DNA from: an uncultured Verrucomicrobiota bacterium
GTDB taxonomy: Bacteria > Verrucomicrobiota > Kiritimatiellia > Kiritimatiellales > Tichowtungiaceae
Assembly (NCBI GenBank): GCA_964398915.1
Contig: CAYNOR010000006.1
Span: 14,068-78,067 of the forward strand
DNA length: 64,000 bases
Direction: 5' to 3'
The notes beneath the pieces were generated by a model that had not been told where the DNA came from, searched no databases, and worked only from the letters and a program-made list of their open reading frames with translations. How positions within the stretch are numbered: position 1 is the first letter of the stretch; each line of letters starts with the position of its first letter. This document shows positions 5,016 through 62,282 of the stretch, piece by piece. Both the position numbers and the translations under genes were made by a program.

Positions 5016-6287
5016 CTATTCTTTTAGAAGCCTAACCCACGGAACAGTTTTTGAGGCTCCACTCACCGTAGTATAATTTTTTGAGCCAAGCAAAACGATG
5101 AACCCTTTTATCGCTTGCCCATCGACCATTTGGTCTGATGTTTCGTGGTCGACCATTAGAATAGAGCTTTCAGCAATTCGCATGCTTTTTGTCCCGAAAT
5201 TAAAATCACCTACAGCATGTATCAGAAGCACCTTTTTGTCGCATTGCAAAACCTCCCAAGATACGCGACCCACATCCAGTTCAAAAAATTCACCGATTTG
5301 GCTATCGATTGATTTCCCATCTACTATTACCGAAGATAGAAAGGCAAATGCGGTTCTGCCCTTAAAACAGTAGGAAGAGTTGAAGCCCTTTGCCCAGCTG
5401 TCAATTCTAACAATTCTGTCCGCTTGTGCGTTCTTTCGGGCCTCCTCAGCAGCCAGAGCTACCTCAGTCTGTCTCTTTATTACAGCCTGTTCCTTTTCTT
5501 TTTCTTCAAGCCGCAGCTGTTCCCACTGCGCTTCTTTCGCTTTCCGTTCGTCATCTTTAATTTTTTGATCTTTAATTCGCGCGGCCTCTTCGTCTTTTCG
5601 TTTAATTTCCCACGCTTTTTCCCGCGCATCCTCTTCGTCTTTTTTTCTAATTTCCCATGCTTTTGCTCGCGCCTTTTCTTCTTGTAGTAGTTTAATTTCC
5701 CATGCTCTCCCCATCGCTTTTTGGGGGTCAAATCCCTGTTCCTTCTTAACCAGCGGATTGAGGATTCCAGCGCGCTTTTTGAAGAAAGTCAGGTCTTCTT
5801 TGAAGTGGCGGGGGCCAATAGCCAGTTCGATGAACGCATCATCTCCGACCATGTATAGGCTAAGTAGTTTACCATCCCGATTATCTCCATTTGGAGGATT
5901 AGATGAACAATCTTTCGCGAAGCAATACTCTGTGCGGCCTTGAATCAGGTCGTTCAGCGCGCCTCCGCCGGACGGATCTCCAAATCGAAGGATTTTGATG
6001 TCAGGGGCAAACGCTAATGTCTGCGCAATGCTGGTAAATTTTTCGATAGCTTTGTCTGGGGGGCAGACCCATACCGCCCCGTATAAATCTGTGTCAGCTT
6101 CAAAATATTTCGAGTAGTTGGTGGAGGCAGATTCCCAGCCTGACGCGCCAGCGATTGCTTCCGGTTTGAGCCGATTTTTGTTTTGTTGGTCGTAGAGGAT
6201 GTCGTCTTCATAACTTTTGGTTACCTCTAGCAGCGTGCATCCGTTCAGTAAAAACACCCCGGCAATAATGATTAAAAACCGTCGCAT
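5016..6287 (-). CDS. lipoprotein with a central charged coiled-coil carrying AWEI repeats, function unknown
   Basis: Signal peptide plus lipobox MRRFLIIIAGVFLLNGC. The central region reads GRAWEIKLLQEEKARAKAWEIRKKDEEDAREKAWEIKRKDEE. It lies 11 nt upstream of the helicase ORF on the same strand. Confidence 0.6.
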   Translation of the reverse strand: MRRFLIIIAGVFLLNGCTLLEVTKSYEDDILYDQQNKNRLKPEAIAGASGWESASTNYSKYFEADTDLYGAVWVCPPDKAIEKFTSIAQTLAFAPDIKILRFGDPSGGGALNDLIQGRTEYCFAKDCSSNPPNGDNRDGKLLSLYMVGDDAFIELAIGPRHFKEDLTFFKKRAGILNPLVKKEQGFDPQKAMGRAWEIKLLQEEKARAKAWEIRKKDEEDAREKAWEIKRKDEEAARIKDQKIKDDERKAKEAQWEQLRLEEKEKEQAVIKRQTEVALAAEEARKNAQADRIVRIDSWAKGFNSSYCFKGRTAFAFLSSVIVDGKSIDSQIGEFFELDVGRVSWEVLQCDKKVLLIHAVGDFNFGTKSMRIAESSILMVDHETSDQMVDGQAIKGFIVLLGSKNYTTVSGASKTVPWVRLLKE

Positions 6288-6443
6288 TATAGTTCCTTTC
6301 GTTCGTGGACTAAGCATATTGGCTGTTTCTGAGCAGGGCTACTTCCTCATAACCTAAAATTTAAATGCCTGAGTGGGAAGCTAGACCTTACCGGCGGGCG
6401 ATAAAAGTGGAAAGAGCAGTTTATTGTATAACCTTAGAATTCG

Positions 6444-8200: not shown

Positions 8201-8266
8201 CACAGTACGAGGCGCGGTGCTTCAGCGTCGATTTATATCAAAAATGCATGATACTCGGTTTGAAGA

Positions 8267-8318
8267 CAGGGCAGGCTGGAAGCCTGCGATACGTACCGCA
8301 GGCTTCCAGCCTGCCTTG
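8267..8318. terminator. long perfect hairpin between convergent genes (bidirectional terminator or REP-like element)
   Basis: GGCAGGCTGGAAGCCTGCG (8270-8288) pairs perfectly with CGCAGGCTTCCAGCCTGCC (8297-8315) around an 8-nt loop, and the stem can be extended by 3 more pairs. Confidence 0.5.
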
Positions 8319-8349
8319 ATAAAATACTGGATATCATCCGCAAATGGTA

Positions 8350-33488: not shown

Positions 33489-34343
33489 ATGGGCTTTCTA
33501 GCGAAGAGTGAGGCGTTTGTTTTGAAAAAAAGGGCTGAAACAGGAGATGCGATAGCACAGCACGACTTGGGGATTTGCTACGCTACAGGGAGTGGGGTTC
33601 CTCAGAATCATATAGAGGCGGTGAAATGGTACCGTCTAGCTTGTGCGCAAGGGATTCCAAACTCTCAGCACAACCTCGGTGTCTGCTACTTAGATGGCAC
33701 AGGTGTTCCGCAGGATTATAAAGAAGCTGCGAGGTGGTTCCGCCTTGCCGCTGAACAGGGCCATCCGGCGGCGCAAGCTAATCTCGGGATATGCTTCTGT
33801 TACGGGGTCGGAGTTCCGCAGGATTACATCCAAGCTTATGCGTGGCTTTCTCTTTCGGCCGACCAAGGCAATGAGATCGGTAAGTTGGAAGAGGAGAAAT
33901 TACGAAACAATATATCAACGCTGAAGTATTTAGAAGGGAGGCGGATGGCGGAGACGTATCGGGAATGTCAGTCGATTTGGAAGAAGATTAAACATGAAAA
34001 TGGTGACGTTACCATGAGCGACAAATCTACAGGTAAAATGTGGACCGGCATTGCGAACCTTGGCGGCCGCAAGCGATGGGATGATGCTTTAACCTTTTGC
34101 AAGAGCCTAACCTATGCGGGGTATTCGGACTGGCGACTGCCTAATAAAACCGAGCTCCGTGCTCAATTCCAGCACCAAAGAGAGTTTTCGGGTGTGGAGC
34201 GCGGTGGTAACTTATACTGGTCGGGAACCCTCTGTGGATATATTCCAGGTTTCGCGTGGTATGTGGATATGAACACCGGAAATGTAAGTACGCTAAGTAA
34301 GAGTTGGGATCTTTTTGTGTGGCCGGTGCGCGGCAAACAATAA
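33489..34343 (+). CDS. Sel1-repeat protein with C-terminal DUF1566 (Lcl-C-like) domain
   Basis: Repeated G(V)PQ(D/N)...A..W...A..QG units (four copies). The C-terminus has YSDWRLPNKTEL and WSGT. Confidence 0.75.
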   Translation: MGFLAKSEAFVLKKRAETGDAIAQHDLGICYATGSGVPQNHIEAVKWYRLACAQGIPNSQHNLGVCYLDGTGVPQDYKEAARWFRLAAEQGHPAAQANLGICFCYGVGVPQDYIQAYAWLSLSADQGNEIGKLEEEKLRNNISTLKYLEGRRMAETYRECQSIWKKIKHENGDVTMSDKSTGKMWTGIANLGGRKRWDDALTFCKSLTYAGYSDWRLPNKTELRAQFQHQREFSGVERGGNLYWSGTLCGYIPGFAWYVDMNTGNVSTLSKSWDLFVWPVRGKQ

Positions 34344-34750: not shown

Positions 34751-34869
34751 GGGAGCCTTTCAAGATGCAGAGAGGGGTCCTTGAATCTTGATCTGCGATA
34801 GGCGGGAACCGGGCCTCATTTCCCAGGCTTCGGAAAGAAACCGGATGGGGCGGTTGTGCGGGATTTTCA

Positions 34870-34896
34870 ACGTAGATGCGACGCCCTCGTCGCATC
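34870..34896. repeat. solo REP-like unit (GTAG head plus 9-bp hairpin)
   Basis: aCGTAGATGCGACG-CCCT-CGTCGCATC, the same unit as the arms of the intragenic doublets. Confidence 0.7.
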
Positions 34897-45315: not shown

Positions 45316-47079
45316 ATGCTAATAATTATCCAACACAGTGACGGCTGGCTTCGATTTGAGAAGCCGGTCGAAGTGCTGACGGCGCGCGCATCGGATGAAG
45401 TTTTCCAATGTCTGGAAAAAATTGAAGCCAGCGGTTTGTGGGCCGCCGGATTTATTTCCTACGAAGCCGCCGGCGCGTTTGATTCCGTATTGAAAACGCG
45501 CGCGACGGGTAATCTGCCGCTTCTGCAGTTCGGGCTTTTTAAAAATGTGGAAACCCACCCCGGCCTGCGGCCACCCCTCCATGGGAGGGGATTGTATCAA
45601 CTCGGCGAATGGACGCCGTCGGTGACGCGCGGAGAATATTCCGAAGCAATTGCGAAAATCAAAGAGCACATTGCGGCGGGCGACACGTATCAGGTGAATT
45701 ACACCTTCCGGCTGAATGCCGATTTTTCCGGTTCGCCGTTCGACTTTTTTTGCGATTTGGCCGTCGCCCAGCAGGGCAGTTATGCCGCCTTTATAGAAAC
45801 CAATGAGTTCGCTATCTGTTCGGCTTCGCCGGAACTTTTTTTCGAACTCAAAGACGGCGTGATTACATCGCGTCCGATGAAAGGCACCCTGCCGCGCGCG
45901 TTGACGGCGGAGGCGGATCGCGCCGCCGCTGAAGCACTGAAGAATTCGGCGAAAGATCGTGCGGAAAATATTATGATCGTCGATATGATCCGCAACGATA
46001 TCGGGCGCATTGCTGAGGCGGGAAGTGTCGAAACGCTCAGCCGGTTCGATGTCGAAAAATATCCGACTGTCTGGCAGTTGACTTCGACGGTGCGAGGAAA
46101 TGTAGACGCGACGCCCTCGTCGCGTTTCCCATCTGGAATAAAACGCGACGAGGGCGTCGCGTCTACGTTGAGACCTCTGTTTACGGCGTTATTTCCCTGC
46201 GCATCGATTACCGGCGCGCCGAAGGCGAAGACGATGGAGATTATCCAAGGTTTGGAGAAGTCGCCGCGCGGCGTTTATACCGGAGCGATTGGTTTTATTG
46301 CGCCGGACGGTTCAGCTCAGTTCAATGTTGCGATCCGGACAGCCGTGGTGGATCGGAGTGCTGGAGTGGTGGAGTACGGGATTGGCGGGGGGATTGTTTG
46401 GGACTCTGATCCGGATCAGGAATATCAGGAAGCCATGTCCAAAGCGGCGATCCTGACGAAAAAGATGCCGCAGTTTCAGTTGCTGGAAACGATGCTTTGG
46501 GAGGATGGAGAAATCTTTCTGCTGGAGCGCCACCTGAAACGGCTGGCGGAGTCGGCGGAGTATTTTGACGTCAAAATCGATCTGAATGAAATCCGCGACC
46601 ATCTGCGCCATCTGCGGTTTGAATATCCAACACGAATCCGGCTGTTGTTGAGCCGGGACGGGCAATTTAAGGTGGAAGCGGCATCCTGCTGCTGGACTCA
46701 GCGGCAGGATGCCGCTTCCACACTGGCGCTTGCGAAGCGTCCGGTCGATTCCGGGGATGTTTTCCTTTATCACAAGACGACGAACCGCTCGGTTTATGAA
46801 AAAGCGAAGGCGGACTTTCCGGAGGCCGACGACGTATTGCTGTTTAATGAGCGCGGCGAGGTGACGGAGAGCTGTATGGCCAACATCGTGGTCGAGCTGG
46901 ACGGGCGCAAGGTGACGCCGCCGGTCTCCTGCGGGCTGCTTGCGGGAACGTTCCGCGACGAACTGCTCGCAAAGGGCGAGATTGAGGAGCGGGCCATTAC
47001 ACTGGATGATTTAATGCGTGCCGACTCCGTCTGGTTGATCAATTCGGTGCGGCGATGGCAAGTCGCCAGCCTGCTCTAA
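45316..47079 (+). CDS. pabB: aminodeoxychorismate synthase component I fused to an aminotransferase class IV (ADC lyase-like) domain
   Basis: FPCASITGAPK, RGVYTGAIGF and GGGIVWDSDP, followed by a class IV-like C-terminal half (FLYHKTTNR). Confidence 0.85.
   Translation: MLIIIQHSDGWLRFEKPVEVLTARASDEVFQCLEKIEASGLWAAGFISYEAAGAFDSVLKTRATGNLPLLQFGLFKNVETHPGLRPPLHGRGLYQLGEWTPSVTRGEYSEAIAKIKEHIAAGDTYQVNYTFRLNADFSGSPFDFFCDLAVAQQGSYAAFIETNEFAICSASPELFFELKDGVITSRPMKGTLPRALTAEADRAAAEALKNSAKDRAENIMIVDMIRNDIGRIAEAGSVETLSRFDVEKYPTVWQLTSTVRGNVDATPSSRFPSGIKRDEGVASTLRPLFTALFPCASITGAPKAKTMEIIQGLEKSPRGVYTGAIGFIAPDGSAQFNVAIRTAVVDRSAGVVEYGIGGGIVWDSDPDQEYQEAMSKAAILTKKMPQFQLLETMLWEDGEIFLLERHLKRLAESAEYFDVKIDLNEIRDHLRHLRFEYPTRIRLLLSRDGQFKVEAASCCWTQRQDAASTLALAKRPVDSGDVFLYHKTTNRSVYEKAKADFPEADDVLLFNERGEVTESCMANIVVELDGRKVTPPVSCGLLAGTFRDELLAKGEIEERAITLDDLMRADSVWLINSVRRWQVASLL
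46102..46166. repeat. REPIN-like inverted REP doublet inserted in-frame in pabB
   Basis: GTAGACGCGACGCCCTCGTCGCGTT-spacer-AACGCGACGAGGGCGTCGCGTCTAC, translated as VDATPSSRFPSGIKRDEGVAST. Confidence 0.8.
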
Positions 47080-59249: not shown

Positions 59250-62200
59250 CTATGACTTGAGCAGTTCTTTTGGATCGATGGCGGTGGTGCGGCAGATGTG
59301 GGAATAGTCGTCGTACCCGGCGATGAGCGGTTCGGTGGCGAGGTCGCCGGCACGCAGTTTCCGGACATTGGAAAAGAGTGTTTTGAGGAACGCTTCCGTC
59401 AGCTCCGGATTCATTGAAAGCCGTTTCTTTGTGAAGTGTTTGGTCATTTCGTTCAGGTCGCGTTCCTGCAGGTGATAGACGGCCTGTGTTTTTTCGTTCA
59501 GTTCCGGCGTGTTGTGCGCGCCAAAAAACTTTTGCTGCGCCGCAAAGGTGTAGAGCGGAAGCTGGCAGTCGAGATTGAGCGCGATTTTCTTTTCGAGGTT
59601 GTCCAGCGAGTCCTTGCGCGACTTGCTCTTGTAGTCCACCACCAGCAACCGTTCCAGTTCGCCATTGGAGTCGAAGATCAGATCAATGCGGTCGATTTTA
59701 CCTTTCAGCCGGACTTCTTCATCGCCGCGCTTTAGCGTCACCGGCAAATCGTGTTTGGCGTCGAACTTCAGTTCGAACAGTGCCGGATAACGATTTTCAG
59801 CATGCGCCGTTTCGATATCCATGCGGACAAAGTTTTCGATCATCTGCCGCAGCTTGCGTTTTTCGGTTTCCCATATCGCGGGGTGGCCGAGGTGACGGCT
59901 GGGCCGCCGCTCCGCTTTTTTGAATTCTTCTTCCGCAATGCTGCGTGCCAGCGCCAGCAGTTCGCCGGACTTCGACGGATCAAAAACCGCCAGCGGGATA
60001 GAATCTGCTCCGGACTTTTGGCTGATCTTCCAACGTAGATGCGACGCCCTCGTCGCATTTTCATCCTGTGAGGAACGCGACGAGGGCGTCGCGTCTACGT
60101 TAATTCTTGTCGCGTACCGACCGCTTTGTCTGGCGATGGCGGTATAAACCTGTTCGAGAATGTCGTGAATGACGTTGCCGCGGTCTGCCGGGTCGGTGCC
60201 GTCTTCGTGTGTGCGGTCGGGCCGGATGCTCAGTACCTTTTCGAGGAAGAAAACAAACCGGTTGCGGGCCAGCGATTCCAGTGCCGTTGCGCTGAACTCC
60301 GGATGGTCTTTGAGCCATTTCTGGATCGTAGACGCGACGCCCTCGTCGCGTTCAGATTTTCCAATGTTTGGAAAACGCGACGAGGGCGTCGCGTCTACGT
60401 TAAAAGCCAGCTTCGCCCGTGTCTGCCGGACTTCATCCTCGGCGCGGCAGAGTTCCGGCGGCAGAATCGTGTGAAACGATGCGCCGAGTACCGGTTTTTC
60501 GATTCCGGTCAGGCTGCGCATCCGTTCAAAAAATTCACCCGGCGCGCGCTCTTTGCCGTCGGCACCGGTGCGGGTATAGGAAAGCGTCAGCCGTTCACGC
60601 GCCGCGCTCATGGCGGTGAGAAAAAGAATTTCTTCCTGAATCAGCGCGGCTCCGGTTTCCGAAAGCGCCAGCCGCGGGCAGGGAATTTTCCGTTCGTCCA
60701 GAAATGCCCGTAGCGCTTTGCGCTCGTTCCCGTTCAGCAGAGAATCAACTTTTGGAATCTGAGGGAAAGTACGGTCATCCATTCCGGCAATATAAACCGA
60801 TTCGAAGCGCAGCCCCGCCGTGTCCATCGGATTGACAATCCAGACGCCGCTTTCTGTTCCGGCGTCATCTTTGAGTGTGACGTTATCGAGCAGTTCCTCA
60901 AACAGCGGAATCATTTGCCCGATCGGGAGCGCCGGGATAGCGGGTGTGTTCAGTTCTTCAATTAAAACCAGAACCTCATCAGGCAATTTCAGGCTGTGTT
61001 GCTGAATCAGAACCGTGACTTGTTCTGAGAAACGTAGACGCGACGCCCCCGTCGCGTTTCTTTGCACACGGGCCGCGACGGGGGCGTCGCGTCTACACTC
61101 AAAGAAGCTTTCCAGTTCCTTCGGCAGGCGGCGCAGGCGCGGAGGTTCTTTGTGGCGGATTTCCTGAATCAGTGCCGCGGGGTCTTCAATACCGGGCCAC
61201 TGGATGCCGGGCATTAACAGCAGGTCGCAAAGCCGGTCGCGCGAAAGCGTTTGGGGAAATGCGAGTAAAGCCATCAAGGCTTTAACCGGCGGATGAGCGG
61301 CGGCGGGCGTACCGCGCCGGAAATGGTACGGGATGCTGAAGCGCGCAAAGACGTCGGGGATAATGTCAGTGTACGGGCTCAGGTCGCGCAGGATCAGCGC
61401 GATTTCGTCGGGCGGAGTTCCGGCCTCGATCTCATGGGCGATGCGCCGCGCGGCATCTTCGATTTCGCCGTACGGGTGGGCGGAAACAAAAAACGAAACC
61501 CGTTCCCGCGATTCCGATTCGAGGATATTGCTGTCGTCAGCTTCGATGGCATCGGCGAAATCCTCCAACCACGGTTTCCATTCTTCTTCGGATCCTCGCA
61601 TCAGCTCGCTGCGTACGACGGCGCAGAGCCGGTCTTCAGCCGCTTCGGCGTGGGCACCCGGCAGAACGGAATAGATTTTCACGCGATCCGTCCCTAGCCG
61701 TTTTTTGAGCGCGGCTACGAAACGCTCTTCGAACGGGTTGAACCAGCGGACGGCACGGAAGTGGATTTTTCCAGCCAGTTCGCGGGGCAGTTTGCCGGAT
61801 TCAATCAGACGGAGCAGGGCGGTGTTGACAGCGAAGCGGTCGGCGATGTCCATTTTTGTACACCATGCGCGCCATGCTTTGAGAAGCTGGCCGATACCGT
61901 GCAGTTTATGGTTCGGCTCATGCGCCAGCAGCCATTCAGTAATGCCGGATTCGTTTTCGGCAAAAACGGCGAAGGTTTCAATCGTCTGCCGGAGCAGTCC
62001 AGCTCGCGCGGCAGACGAAAGGCTGGCGAGCGGCTGGCCGGATGCAAAAGAAACGTTTCTAGCGGCTTCTTCGAGAAGCAGGCGGATTTCGGTTGGGCCG
62101 GGCACGCGGCCCTTGAGCAGTCCTGTGCGCCGGGCGGCCCGTTCGCAAAGGATAAGGAGCTTTTTCTGGGTTAAAAGGCGGGATGTATCGACAACCCCGT

Positions 62201-62282
62201 GTTCGTTGACGCAATGGCGTTCATACCGGCGTTTAGCCAGTTCAGTCGGGAAAATCATCAATGCCTCGCCGCTCATCTTCAT
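59250..62282 (-). CDS. AddB/RexB-like PD-(D/E)xK nuclease family protein (inactive-helicase-like N-region plus C-terminal nuclease)
   Basis: VWIVNPMDTAGLRFESVYIAGMDDRTFP, ERLTLSY, DRGNVIHDILEQ and KGKIDRIDLI...LLVVDYKSK. No AddA partner gene lies next to it. Confidence 0.7.
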   Translation of the reverse strand: MKMSGEALMIFPTELAKRRYERHCVNEHGVVDTSRLLTQKKLLILCERAARRTGLLKGRVPGPTEIRLLLEEAARNVSFASGQPLASLSSAARAGLLRQTIETFAVFAENESGITEWLLAHEPNHKLHGIGQLLKAWRAWCTKMDIADRFAVNTALLRLIESGKLPRELAGKIHFRAVRWFNPFEERFVAALKKRLGTDRVKIYSVLPGAHAEAAEDRLCAVVRSELMRGSEEEWKPWLEDFADAIEADDSNILESESRERVSFFVSAHPYGEIEDAARRIAHEIEAGTPPDEIALILRDLSPYTDIIPDVFARFSIPYHFRRGTPAAAHPPVKALMALLAFPQTLSRDRLCDLLLMPGIQWPGIEDPAALIQEIRHKEPPRLRRLPKELESFFECRRDAPVAARVQRNATGASRLRFSEQVTVLIQQHSLKLPDEVLVLIEELNTPAIPALPIGQMIPLFEELLDNVTLKDDAGTESGVWIVNPMDTAGLRFESVYIAGMDDRTFPQIPKVDSLLNGNERKALRAFLDERKIPCPRLALSETGAALIQEEILFLTAMSAARERLTLSYTRTGADGKERAPGEFFERMRSLTGIEKPVLGASFHTILPPELCRAEDEVRQTRAKLAFNVDATPSSRFPNIGKSERDEGVASTIQKWLKDHPEFSATALESLARNRFVFFLEKVLSIRPDRTHEDGTDPADRGNVIHDILEQVYTAIARQSGRYATRINVDATPSSRSSQDENATRASHLRWKISQKSGADSIPLAVFDPSKSGELLALARSIAEEEFKKAERRPSRHLGHPAIWETEKRKLRQMIENFVRMDIETAHAENRYPALFELKFDAKHDLPVTLKRGDEEVRLKGKIDRIDLIFDSNGELERLLVVDYKSKSRKDSLDNLEKKIALNLDCQLPLYTFAAQQKFFGAHNTPELNEKTQAVYHLQERDLNEMTKHFTKKRLSMNPELTEAFLKTLFSNVRKLRAGDLATEPLIAGYDDYSHICRTTAIDPKELLKS
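60033..60100. repeat. REPIN-like doublet inserted in-frame in the AddB-like gene (copy 1)
   Basis: ACGTAGATGCGACGCCCTCGTCGCAT...AACGCGACGAGGGCGTCGCGTCTACGT. On the minus strand it reads INVDATPSSRSSQDENATRASHLR. Confidence 0.8.
60327..60400. repeat. REPIN-like doublet inserted in-frame in the AddB-like gene (copy 2); its spacer carries TTTCCAATGTTTGGAAA
   Basis: CGTAGACGCGACGCCCTCGTCGCGTT-cagaTTTTCCAATGTTTGGAAAA-CGCGACGAGGGCGTCGCGTCTACGT. It reads NVDATPSSRFPNIGKSERDEGVAST. Confidence 0.8.
61033..61097. repeat. REPIN-like doublet inserted in-frame in the AddB-like gene (copy 3, other reading frame, compensated loop change)
   Basis: ACGTAGACGCGACGCCCCCGTCGCG...CGCGACGGGGGCGTCGCGTCTAC. It reads CRRDAPVAARVQRNATGASRLR. 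Confidence 0.8.

Follow-up and report, generated by a model that had tools for sequence, protein, structure and literature searches.

Five copies of a palindromic repeat were located in the 64-kb window (the whole stretch of DNA that was analysed) of a Kiritimatiellales bacterium, four of them inside long open reading frames (ORFs) with Pfam domains. Three of these lie in a single gene for an AddB-like nuclease and one in a PabB/PabC fusion gene, while the fifth copy is intergenic. The features are as follows, with the 23-nt arms given by position and orientation.

34869..34896, plus strand: single REP arm of the T..A subvariant (arm 34872-34894), intergenic, between ORFs ending at 34343 and 35229
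45316..47079, plus strand: PabB/PabC fusion ORF (Pfam Chorismate_bind and Aminotran_4)
46099..46169, unstranded: putative REPIN doublet 4 (arms 46102-46124 and 46144-46166), in frame in the PabB/PabC fusion
59250..62282, minus strand: intact 1010-codon gene for an AddB-like PD-(D/E)XK nuclease whose body resembles an inactivated helicase
60032..60101, unstranded: putative REPIN doublet 1 at site 1 of the AddB-like gene, residues ~728-750; arms 60035-60057 (+) and 60076-60098 (-)
60327..60399, unstranded: putative REPIN doublet 2 at site 2, residues ~628-651; arms 60328-60350 (+) and 60376-60398 (-)
61031..61096, unstranded: putative REPIN doublet 3 at site 3, residues ~395-416; arms 61034-61056 (+) and 61074-61096 (-)

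The ORF that carries three doublets matched the Pfam family PDDEXK_1 (2e-26) and, weakly, UvrD_C, and a phmmer search of its product returned 3u44_B (1.3e-8). An AlphaFold2 model of the protein had a mean pLDDT of 83.3, and its top Foldseek matches were the AddB chains 4cej_B and 3u4q_B (E ~1e-26). The predicted structure is that of an AddB fold, in which a C-terminal PD-(D/E)XK nuclease would sit on a UvrD-like inactive helicase scaffold. An exact-sequence look-up of the 1010-aa ORF gave no match; the catalogued protein P0001 begins 8 codons downstream of the ORF start. Next to it lie a gene for a SIS/CBS protein and an ORF of 180 aa that had no Pfam match.

Each repeat unit has the form AAC-GTAGACGCGACGCCCTCGTCGCG-TT and consists of AAC, a GTAG head, a single A, a 7-bp stem (CGCGACG and CGTCGCG) closed by the 4-nt loop CCCT, and a terminal TT. 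A doublet contains two such units in inverted orientation, with the tails pointing inward, the GTAG heads pointing outward and a variable spacer of 10-39 nt between them. Scanning the window for the arm GTAGACGCGACGCCCTCGTCGCG with up to two mismatches revealed nine matches, where 0.00 were expected from 100 dinucleotide-preserving shuffles. The inverted-repeat arms in the window are 23-29 nt long, 93-100% complementary and 14-21 nt apart. In the AddB-like gene the three doublets measure 63-71 bp and are all in frame; the ORF and arm coordinates thus bear out the preliminary description, which had placed three elements in frame within an open 1010-codon ORF. Its statement that one frame of the arm alone contains a stop was also correct: the TAG lies in the forward arm, and the reverse arm is stop-free in all three frames. 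No conserved spacer and no modulo-3 length rule was found among the doublets, and copies differ in unrelated spacers.

The four doublets of the window, folded as mRNA, gave energies of -53.6 to -60.4 kcal/mol (z = -8.6 to -12.5), and the single arm at 34869..34896 formed a hairpin of -15 kcal/mol (z = -4.8). Rfam and tRNA scans of the window returned no match, so the hairpins are not accounted for by a known RNA family.

Doublet 1 (-53.6 kcal/mol), whose plus arm is the compensated T..A subvariant GTAGATGCGACGCCCTCGTCGCA, translates as NVDATPSSRSSQDENATRASHLR. Both arms of doublet 2 (-60.4 kcal/mol) are exact consensus copies, and its spacer contains a separate palindrome, TTCCAATGTTTGGAA, at 60359-60373; its translation, NVDATPSSRFPNIGKSERDEGVAST, is of the VDATPSSR...RDEGVAST type. 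Doublet 3 (-56.6 kcal/mol) has the same loop change, CCCC, on both arms and reads, in the rare second frame, as RRDAPVAARVQRNATGASRL. The peptide VDATPSSR...RDEGVAST had been reported twice in the AddB-like protein. It occurs there once, at 60328-60398, and the second copy in the window belongs to the PabB/PabC ORF, where doublet 4 translates as NVDATPSSRFPSGIKRDEGVAST; the stretch 60035-60098 encodes VDATPSSRSSQDENATRASHLR. At doublet 4 the PabB/PabC protein is about 16 residues longer than E. coli PabB (1k0e).

The three inserts are among the segments predicted with least confidence in the AlphaFold model, and well-predicted elements flank them. The pLDDT falls below 50 at residues 732-743 for doublet 1, between strands 722-727 and 750-754; at residues 630-645 for doublet 2, between helices 615-629 and 646-659; and at residues 398-414 for doublet 3. 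We therefore read the inserts as probable loop extensions of 21-24 residues (about 20-25 aa), and the predicted structure is consistent with the proposal that the segments sit in loops.

Comparison with homologues showed that each of the three AddB sites is empty in some close relatives, as near as 85% identity, in agreement with the earlier suggestion that the 20-25 aa segments are lineage-specific. Site 1 is empty in the homologues P0002 and L007 and filled with near-identical DNA in P0003 and P0010; here the insert belongs to a tract of roughly 100 nt with no differences between lineages whose dS is 0.5-0.65. Site 2 is occupied in L007 by a doublet with identical arms and an unrelated spacer, and in P0002 by a different REP family. 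Most homologues lack an insert at site 3 (F-Q-P-LDF), and about ten have one. The site of doublet 4 is also filled in a Pontiella orthologue (58% aa identity), again with a different spacer. Against homologues, the AddB-like gene had dN/dS values of 0.16-0.22 (~0.18), including between lineages that share insert 1, and is under purifying selection. Two separate assemblies, from JGI and ENA, give the gene with the same sequence.

These observations bear on another reading of the locus, in which the segments would be ordinary ancestral or convergent protein sequence, or the gene a dead pseudogene or an assembly artefact. The unbroken ORF is the one observation that speaks for it. Against it, the same DNA recurs between genes and inside unrelated ones, homologues with 85% identity have empty sites, dN/dS is ~0.18, two assemblies agree on the sequence, and isolate genomes contain the family. 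The tests made thus contradict this reading, which we consider exceedingly improbable.

The arm family extends well beyond the window. The exact 23-mer was found at a minimum of 114 loci in other GTDB genomes, all outside the window's own genome and mostly in Kiritimatiellales and Pontiellaceae, so that the motif is indeed repeated elsewhere, as had been proposed. At least about 30 loci are in the metagenome-assembled genome (MAG) SZUA-494 and at least 11-13 in each of two further MAGs; the cultured isolates B1224 and B12227 carry the family as well. Among 210 arms, GTAG was kept in more than 98%. The stem pair at positions 5/22 was CG in 160 arms, AT in 24, TA in 16 and TG in 4, with 6 mispairs, and the pair at 9/18 was AT in 193 and GC in 10. 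The AT class lay outside the scan pattern and is therefore no product of search bias. This pattern of covariation shows that the 7-bp hairpin is preserved by compensatory changes. Pairs were oriented with tails facing in 74 cases and heads facing in one, and single arms were common. A GTAG head, a GC-rich stem-loop, a compensated stem and inverted pairs, four hallmarks of GTAG-type REPs (imperfect palindromes of 20-40 bp), were thus observed.

Could the doublets instead be miniature inverted-repeat elements (MITEs), the terminal inverted repeats left by a decayed insertion sequence of the DDE type and moved by a transposase unrelated to RAYT? A doublet does resemble two inverted repeats of 26-29 nt around a short core. 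However, every arm forms a GTAG-headed hairpin of its own, with compensatory changes in the stem, single arms are common, and the same arms bracket a Y1 transposase (see below). Direct reading of the flanks of the four window doublets (CCAAC/GTTAA, GGATC/GTTAA, GAAAC/ACTCA and GAAAT/GTTGA, in which AAC and GTT belong to the palindrome) also showed no target-site duplication, which counts further against MITEs. This origin is very unlikely. A target-site rule for the insertions was looked for and not found.

Location within genes is a general habit of the family. Long ORFs contained 70 of the 210 arms and 45 of 136 elements (~33%), compared with 54% for random segments; the family is depleted from coding DNA only mildly. 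Among intragenic copies the VDATPSSR frame was preferred 35:1 over RRDALVA. The hosts elsewhere are genuine genes and include ValRS, PdxA, HypF, TilS, MnmA, PrmC, PabBC, glycosidases, a kinase and others. An extragenic location is therefore not a property of this family, nor is it required of GTAG REPs in PMC3733652. The preliminary description, which called REPs extragenic by definition, was wrong or outdated on this point; GTAG REPs inside ORFs had already been documented (PMC3733652).

A candidate enzyme for these repeats was found inside priA, the gene for the replication-restart helicase. The PriA protein P0244, present like the AddB-like gene of the window in both the JGI and the ENA assembly, contains an internal Y1_Tnp domain with intact catalytic motifs (HUH, MPNHVH; Tyr, YIEDNP). 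This RAYT domain is flanked on the left by GTAGATGCGACGCCCTCGTCGCA, the subvariant found in the window, and has a consensus arm inside it and another to its right; at the corresponding locus (L122), arms lie at 1870(+), 2086(+), 2525(-) and 2554(-). Co-occurrence in two assemblies, the shared subvariant and similar GC contents (51.8% for the window and 52.6% for the PriA::RAYT contig, which are separate contigs) suggest that L122 and the window come from the same genome. REP-flanked RAYT domains inside PriA were also found in L008, L100 and L038. A search for a RAYT bordered by this REP had been suggested from the window alone, and RAYTs bordered by its variants were thus found both in the window's own metagenome and in related genomes.

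Across much of Kiritimatiellales, a RAYT lies in frame inside priA, with the 3'-end-binding domain on one side and the winged helix on the other. Its catalytic residues are conserved in dozens of lineages, and cultured Pontiella strains have the same priA::RAYT architecture. Among homologues the priA linker is near-empty, holds a plain REPIN doublet, or contains the full REP-RAYT-REP module. The closest stand-alone relatives of the nested domain are RayT genes with flanking GTAG REPs. The best PDB match of a profile of the domain was E. coli TnpA-REP (4er8); phmmer with the domain sequence found no match in the PDB, and the profile was required. The first RAYT probe was an E. coli YafM sequence used as a lead only, with every match re-tested against Pfam. 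Searches with the RAYT domain only returned stand-alone RayTs and no PriA fusions, which emerged only with a full-length PriA query; their absence from the domain-only search therefore carries no weight. A limited literature search for PriA with RAYT, Kiritimatiellaeota REP and in-frame REPIN gave nothing relevant, and a RAYT nested in frame inside priA was met in none of its papers.

Together, repetition, covariation, empty sites, the structural model, dN/dS and a REP-flanked cognate RAYT support the reading of the AddB elements as REPINs that the preliminary description had put forward. We conclude that they are likely to be dimers of the REPIN type, placed by a RAYT and tolerated in loops, and that the GTAG-headed REP family to which they belong is native to Kiritimatiellales. 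A RAYT, a Y1 HUH transposase acting on single-stranded REP hairpins, would have placed the elements in the AddB-like gene, and the insertions would have survived by falling in loops. Tolerance may be aided by the arm itself, which is stop-free in two of three forward and all three reverse frames, and in the frames used would yield small polar peptides such as VDATPSSR and RDEGVAST. The AddB-like gene is probably still functional, with the repeats translated into protein, and the elements may still be mobile or undergoing homogenisation.

Two aspects call for more than this. One might expect hairpins of -54 to -60 kcal/mol in an mRNA to impede translation or to draw RNases. Furthermore, where different species carry a doublet at one and the same codon, the arms are identical and the spacers unrelated. 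Neither this nor the identical tract around insert 1 is explained by a one-off insertion with neutral decay; re-insertion, gene conversion, recombination or selection at the DNA level must be invoked beyond simple insertion.

Such selection is the core of another explanation, in which the elements are kept because, as DNA or as RNA, they benefit the host, the RAYT merely maintains them and the in-frame site is itself selected. Hairpins could, for example, adjust how repair genes are translated or how their mRNA decays, or form structures sensed at replication forks. The arms are 23/23 identical at orthologous sites despite saturated flanking codons, the hairpins are very stable, intragenic REPs are enriched in replication and repair genes (PMC3733652) and the RAYT is located inside priA, all of which would fit. 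However, the host genes have unrelated functions (a tRNA synthetase, PdxA, glycosidases, a kinase), and many close relatives have empty sites with no visible consequence. The occupation of the same loops by different REP families points to permissive loops rather than a sequence-specific role. Maintenance for host benefit is therefore unlikely, and placement by a RAYT with tolerance in loops is preferred.

The nesting in PriA allows a bolder proposal, which we advance tentatively and rate somewhat below an even chance: that in much of Kiritimatiellales the RAYT servicing the REPs is an internal domain of PriA, brought to stalled forks, and that the linker is the home of the REPtron. If so, the REP-cleaving enzyme would reach the very forks at which REP hairpins exist in single-stranded form, and the priA linker would be a permanent, vertically inherited REPtron home. 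REPINs would be deletion derivatives of the REP-RAYT-REP module at this linker, and the in-frame habit of the family would follow from residence inside an essential gene.

Intragenic REPINs as such are not new. GTAG REP singles and dimers inside ORFs were published in 2013 (Di Nocera, De Gregorio & Rocco, 2013, BMC Genomics 14:522; PMC3733652), with dimers encoding 20-30 aa, at times two to an ORF. The verrucomicrobium Opitutus terrae (PVC) had most of them, and recBCD is among the replication and repair genes enriched for them (PMC3733652). The repeats described here share with those REPs the GTAG head, a GC-rich stem of 6-9 bp, the occurrence as singles, inverted dimers and coding dimers, the association with RAYTs (REPtrons) and sub-families with alternative complementary stem bases. 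Neither the text of that paper nor the supplements examined contained this exact arm family or its peptides. In contrast to that study, three dimers occur here in one gene, the intragenic share of about one-third of copies and the 35:1 frame bias are quantified, and the cognate RAYT, nested in priA, is not free-standing. The AddB case is a clear, well-controlled example of protein-resident REP/REPIN repeats, a little-used phenomenon since 2013. The mild coding depletion, the frame bias, the identical orthologous arms and the priA-nested RAYT offer a handle on RAYT function and on how REPIN populations persist through vertical descent; the presence of priA::RAYT in cultured Pontiella strains makes biochemistry and proteomics feasible.

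Among Rickettsia palindromic elements (RPEs), the main RPE-1 family is longer, at ~100-150 bp, and we know of no dedicated transposase for it. RPEs, too, are described as palindromic repeats in frame in functional genes, translated as extra peptides (PMC3733652). The intragenic R. conorii repeats RPE-4 and RPE-6 are assigned to the CGTC class, which lacks a dedicated transposase (PMC3733652). RPEs had been named as the closest precedent for the AddB inserts, and the intragenic GTAG REPs of PMC3733652 are a precedent as well.

The Kiritimatiellales repeats share three features with the REPIN-RAYT systems of Bertels & Rainey (2011; PMC3116915): a long hairpin made by two inverted REPs, a cognate RAYT with the REPs on its flanks, and covariation of REP with RAYT from lineage to lineage. 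Published REPINs are regarded as extragenic and their RAYTs as genes of their own, whereas here the REPINs are often coding and the RAYT is an in-frame module of priA. A close parallel to a REP within a RAYT is tnpA-REP subclass 2.4, in which a REP lies in frame within the RAYT gene and leaves it undisrupted (Quentin et al., 2018; PMC6006769). The motifs of this subclass (NH[IFV]H, WQ and YIxNNP) are similar to NHVH, WQKESFDH and YIEDNP in the PriA-nested RAYT, where the internal REP follows the first strand-helix unit and precedes the HuH motif. Subclass 2.4 RAYTs are separate genes, unlike the PriA-nested RAYT, and unusually long proteins were discarded in that study as fusions or annotation errors (PMC6006769).

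The minus-strand ORF 59250..62282 runs for 1010 codons without a stop; Pfam finds a PD-(D/E)XK nuclease domain in it and, weakly, UvrD_C. Because it also matches Bacillus AddB distantly in sequence, and the AlphaFold model of its product (mean pLDDT 83.3) has AddB chains of AddAB as best structural matches (E about 1e-26), the name AddB-like is fair. The gene is base-for-base identical in one JGI and one ENA assembly, and homologues assign the organism to Kiritimatiellales. Searching with GTAGACGCGACGCCCTCGTCGCG at up to three mismatches gave nine matches across the window and none in shuffles. Motif and inverted-repeat searches agreed with the doublet coordinates and arm formula of the preliminary description, which had reported three in-frame REPIN-like doublets in this gene.

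GTAG-headed REP arms in the window (motif search)
60035-60057 / 60076-60098, inverted pair, site 1, inside ORF 59250..62282
60328-60350 / 60376-60398, inverted pair, site 2, inside ORF 59250..62282
61034-61056 / 61074-61096, inverted pair, site 3, inside ORF 59250..62282
46102-46166, fourth inverted pair, in the PabB/PabC fusion ORF
34872-34894, lone arm, unpaired

Arm length in the inverted repeats is 23-29 nt, with 93-100% complementarity and a gap of 13-21 nt between arms; a T..A stem variant at 34872 and 60035 represents one compensated sub-family. The insert peptides VDATPSSR..RDEGVAST and RRDAPVAA..NATGASRL were correctly placed in the AddB-like gene, but the second copy of the former, assigned to the same gene, belongs to PabB/PabC, and the third AddB-like insert reads VDATPSSR..NATRASHLR in the ORF translation. 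The PabB/PabC fusion has Chorismate_bind and Aminotran_4 domains (Pfam). It holds repeats of two families, since a GTGG-headed REP doublet of a different family (GTGGAAGCGGCATCCTGCTGCTG / CAGCGGCAGGATGCCGCTTCCAC) lies in frame at 46672-46721 (VEAASCCWTQRQDAAST). A further candidate for a small insert is the GC-rich palindrome GCGGCCACCCCTCCATGGGAGGGG at 45567-45590, in the N-terminal region of PabB (..GLRPPLHGRG..); the Pontiella orthologue is unrelated in sequence there.

The motif recurs in other genomes: screening one genome from each GTDB species with GTAGAYGCGACGCCCYCGTCGCR recovered at least 114 loci. Among the matches listed, most came from Kiritimatiellales and Pontiellaceae, two cultured isolates among them, and a few from Udaeobacter, Limisphaerales, Lentisphaerae, Planctomycetaceae, Ignavibacteria and Nitrospirota MAGs; single MAGs contributed tens of loci. 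GTAG was conserved in >98% of the 210 arms among these matches. The outermost stem pair was CG in 160, AT in 24, TA in 16 and TG in 4, with mispairs in only 6, and an inner pair had changed from AT to GC in 10 of 210. The repeat unit is AAC-arm-TT, and pairs are nearly always tails-facing, separated by spacers of 10-39 nt that are unrelated in sequence. Judged from sequence, this anatomy is that of GTAG REPs and REPINs, and the conserved head, compensated stems, repeat unit and pair orientation support the REPIN reading. It is not the anatomy of a TIR-type MITE; no target-site duplication was visible at the doublets.

MAGs labelled Udaeobacter, Limisphaerales, Verrucomicrobiae, Planctomycetaceae, Ignavibacteria and Nitrospirota likewise contain the exact 23-nt arm (loci L001, L014, L029, L050, L052, L065, L069, L072 and L103), and L065 and L072 carry it in frame at the same place in MnmA. 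Its presence in these MAGs could reflect horizontal spread, deep conservation or mis-binning.

A second palindrome occurs at 16 window sites against 0.07 expected.

Sites of the second palindrome (motif count)
TTCCRRNNNTYGGAA, window 9829, 11659, 11969, 17136, 36399, 36430, 36525, 36555, 37700, 44947, 45403, 56038, 56069, 58435, 59359, 60359

Its copies often lie in pairs about 30 nt apart in intergenic DNA. One, encoding FPNIGK, sits at the apex of doublet 2; the site-2 loop of AddB homologues that lack REP arms likewise shows (F/V)PN(I/L)GK. The palindrome might be a site for regulator binding, or a further small repeat.

Alignment of 105 AddB-like homologues, four of them also at codon level, agreed with the proposal that the inserts are lineage-specific. 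Most homologues have site 3 empty (F-Q-P-LDF) and about ten have it filled. Site 1 lacks the insert in the homologue P0002 (85% identity) and at L007, a relative's AddB locus, and has it in about twenty; the loop at site 2 is hypervariable. Because different palindromic repeat families occupy these loops elsewhere (such as VDAVSSPR..NAMGTSRL, ..NDRDGRSTL and RTGFQPV..GQAGSLSY, which in P0002 is a GTGG-headed hairpin at DNA level), the loops are permissive and gather REP-type elements. In the AlphaFold model, low-confidence segments include residues 398-414, 630-645 and 732-743, which are the three inserts, each flanked by well-predicted helices or strands. The dN/dS of the gene against homologues was 0.16-0.22, and since this range includes pairs sharing insert 1, the gene remained under purifying selection after that insertion. 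At 8248-8337, between convergent ORFs, a third family is represented by a 90-bp palindrome (..CAGGCTGGAAGCCTGCGATAC / GTACCGCAGGCTTCCAGCCTG..) related to the RTGFQPV..GQAGSLSY inserts of AddB homologues.

We scored an element as intragenic if it lay in a stop-free frame of at least 250 codons reaching at least 60 codons on each side. In a census of intragenic versus intergenic copies among the matches listed from the scanned GTDB genomes, 45 of 136 elements (70 of 210 arms) were inside ORFs; the same rule was passed by 54% of 65-nt segments drawn at random from these loci. Pfam found clear domains in 15 of 20 arm-bearing ORFs, the hosts including ValRS, PdxA, HypF, TilS (two doublets), MnmA, PrmC, PabBC, glycosidases and a kinase. 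Open reading is, as had been argued, built into the arm. Among intragenic arms, forward frames read VDATPSSR versus RRDALVA at 35:1, and reverse frames RDEGVAST, NATRASRL and RRGRRVY at 22:9:3. There is a strong filter for a small polar reading, probably acting at the protein level.

Across species, doublets occupying one and the same codon share their arms exactly but not their spacers, which are unrelated; this is seen for AddB site 2 against L007 and for PabB against a Pontiella orthologue (58% identity). Insert 1 lies within a ~100-nt tract identical between lineages with dS 0.5-0.65: across window 60014-60115 (gene nt about 2168-2268), insert 1 and about 15-20 nt on each side are identical to loci L120 and L121 or show 2 differences, and the genes otherwise differ at about 18% of sites. 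Because the tract is near-identical and filled alleles have different flanks (WKISQK) from empty ones (WKIAQS), there is a hint that the filled haplotype spread by recombination. Some process acting on the DNA preserves or renews these sequences; it could be selection, re-insertion, recombination across lineages or conversion among copies. The mRNA hairpins of the doublets are predicted by folding to be very stable, within a gene evidently kept functional.

A search for a RAYT flanked by the same REP, with a crude probe and then Pfam, located one within priA. At L008, L100 and L038, one continuous priA ORF holds a Y1_Tnp (PF01797) domain between the PriA 3'BD and the helicase core, with inverted arms of the window's REP family on both sides.

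priA genes with an in-frame RAYT module of about 230 aa, HUH and Tyr conserved, between 3'BD and winged helix
L122 1501-4398, same metagenome as the window
L008 2696-5599
L100 488-3421
L038 2969-5866

L028 (5798-8000) has the same module, but its 3'BD part (ORF ending 6361) is in a different frame from the RAYT-plus-helicase part, and a degenerate arm lies at 6266-6288; the explanation is a gene split in two, a frameshift that would need recoding, or faulty assembly.

Both the JGI metagenome and the ENA assembly that hold the window's AddB also encode the L122 product, P0244 (965 aa). On the left its gene carries GTAGATGCGACGCCCTCGTCGCA, the subvariant found in the window itself; the consensus is matched exactly by the internal arm and by one right arm, and the second right arm departs from it at 3 positions. 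The HUH (MPNHVH) and tyrosine (YIEDNP) motifs are intact, and GC is 51.8% at this locus versus 52.6% in the window. From co-occurrence, not a shared contig, we infer that this is the cognate RAYT of the window's organism. Its identity as a RAYT is supported by its nearest stand-alone relatives (50-58% identity, annotated RayT), by a domain profile whose best match is E. coli TnpA-REP 4er8, and by the internal arm, a 12-residue insertion relative to stand-alone RayTs. Both stand-alone RayT loci examined (2/2) are flanked by arrays of another GTAG REP.

Among the best 120 PriA homologues, at least 36 clusters of 950-1040 aa, including cultured Pontiella sulfatireligans, have recognisable RAYT motifs (HUH in 35/36, tyrosine in about 34/36), and about 45 carry the PF01797 annotation; the rest are about 733-760 aa and lack the domain. 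In RAYT-less PriAs the same linker holds almost nothing or a plain REPIN doublet, giving three states, nearly empty, plain doublet and full REP-RAYT-REP (P0342, P0271, P0281, P0295, P0273 and P0284 compared). P0281 shares a nearly identical N-terminus with P0244, yet lacks a RAYT and carries a doublet from another REP family, which suggests fast turnover at this site. The REP peptides flanking the RAYT vary by lineage, as would be expected if REP and RAYT co-evolve in place. In the P0244 model (mean pLDDT 71.7) the RAYT region is moderately confident, and the low-confidence linkers are the REP-encoded stretches at about 121-153, 194-200 and 344-358. We found no publication on a RAYT nested in priA in the limited body of literature searched, and this nested priA::RAYT is the part worth specialist follow-up.

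The in-frame REPINs of the AddB-like gene are thus confirmed as an observation and supported in their interpretation, but are of moderate interest because intragenic REPs are already published. The preliminary description had held REPs to be extragenic by definition and in-frame Rickettsia palindromic elements to be the closest precedent; neither statement survives two earlier reports. GTAG REPs inside ORFs were described as singles and dimers that encode 20-30 aa, in some ORFs twice, most of them in Opitutus terrae; replication and repair genes, recBCD among them, were over-represented, and flexible linkers were the suggested location (Di Nocera et al., 2013; PMC3733652). The doublets found here are likewise in-ORF GTAG dimers of that coding length, one host being a repair gene. 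In-frame REP insertions have also been described within tnpA-REP genes (Quentin et al., 2018; PMC6006769), as with the arm inside the RAYT here.
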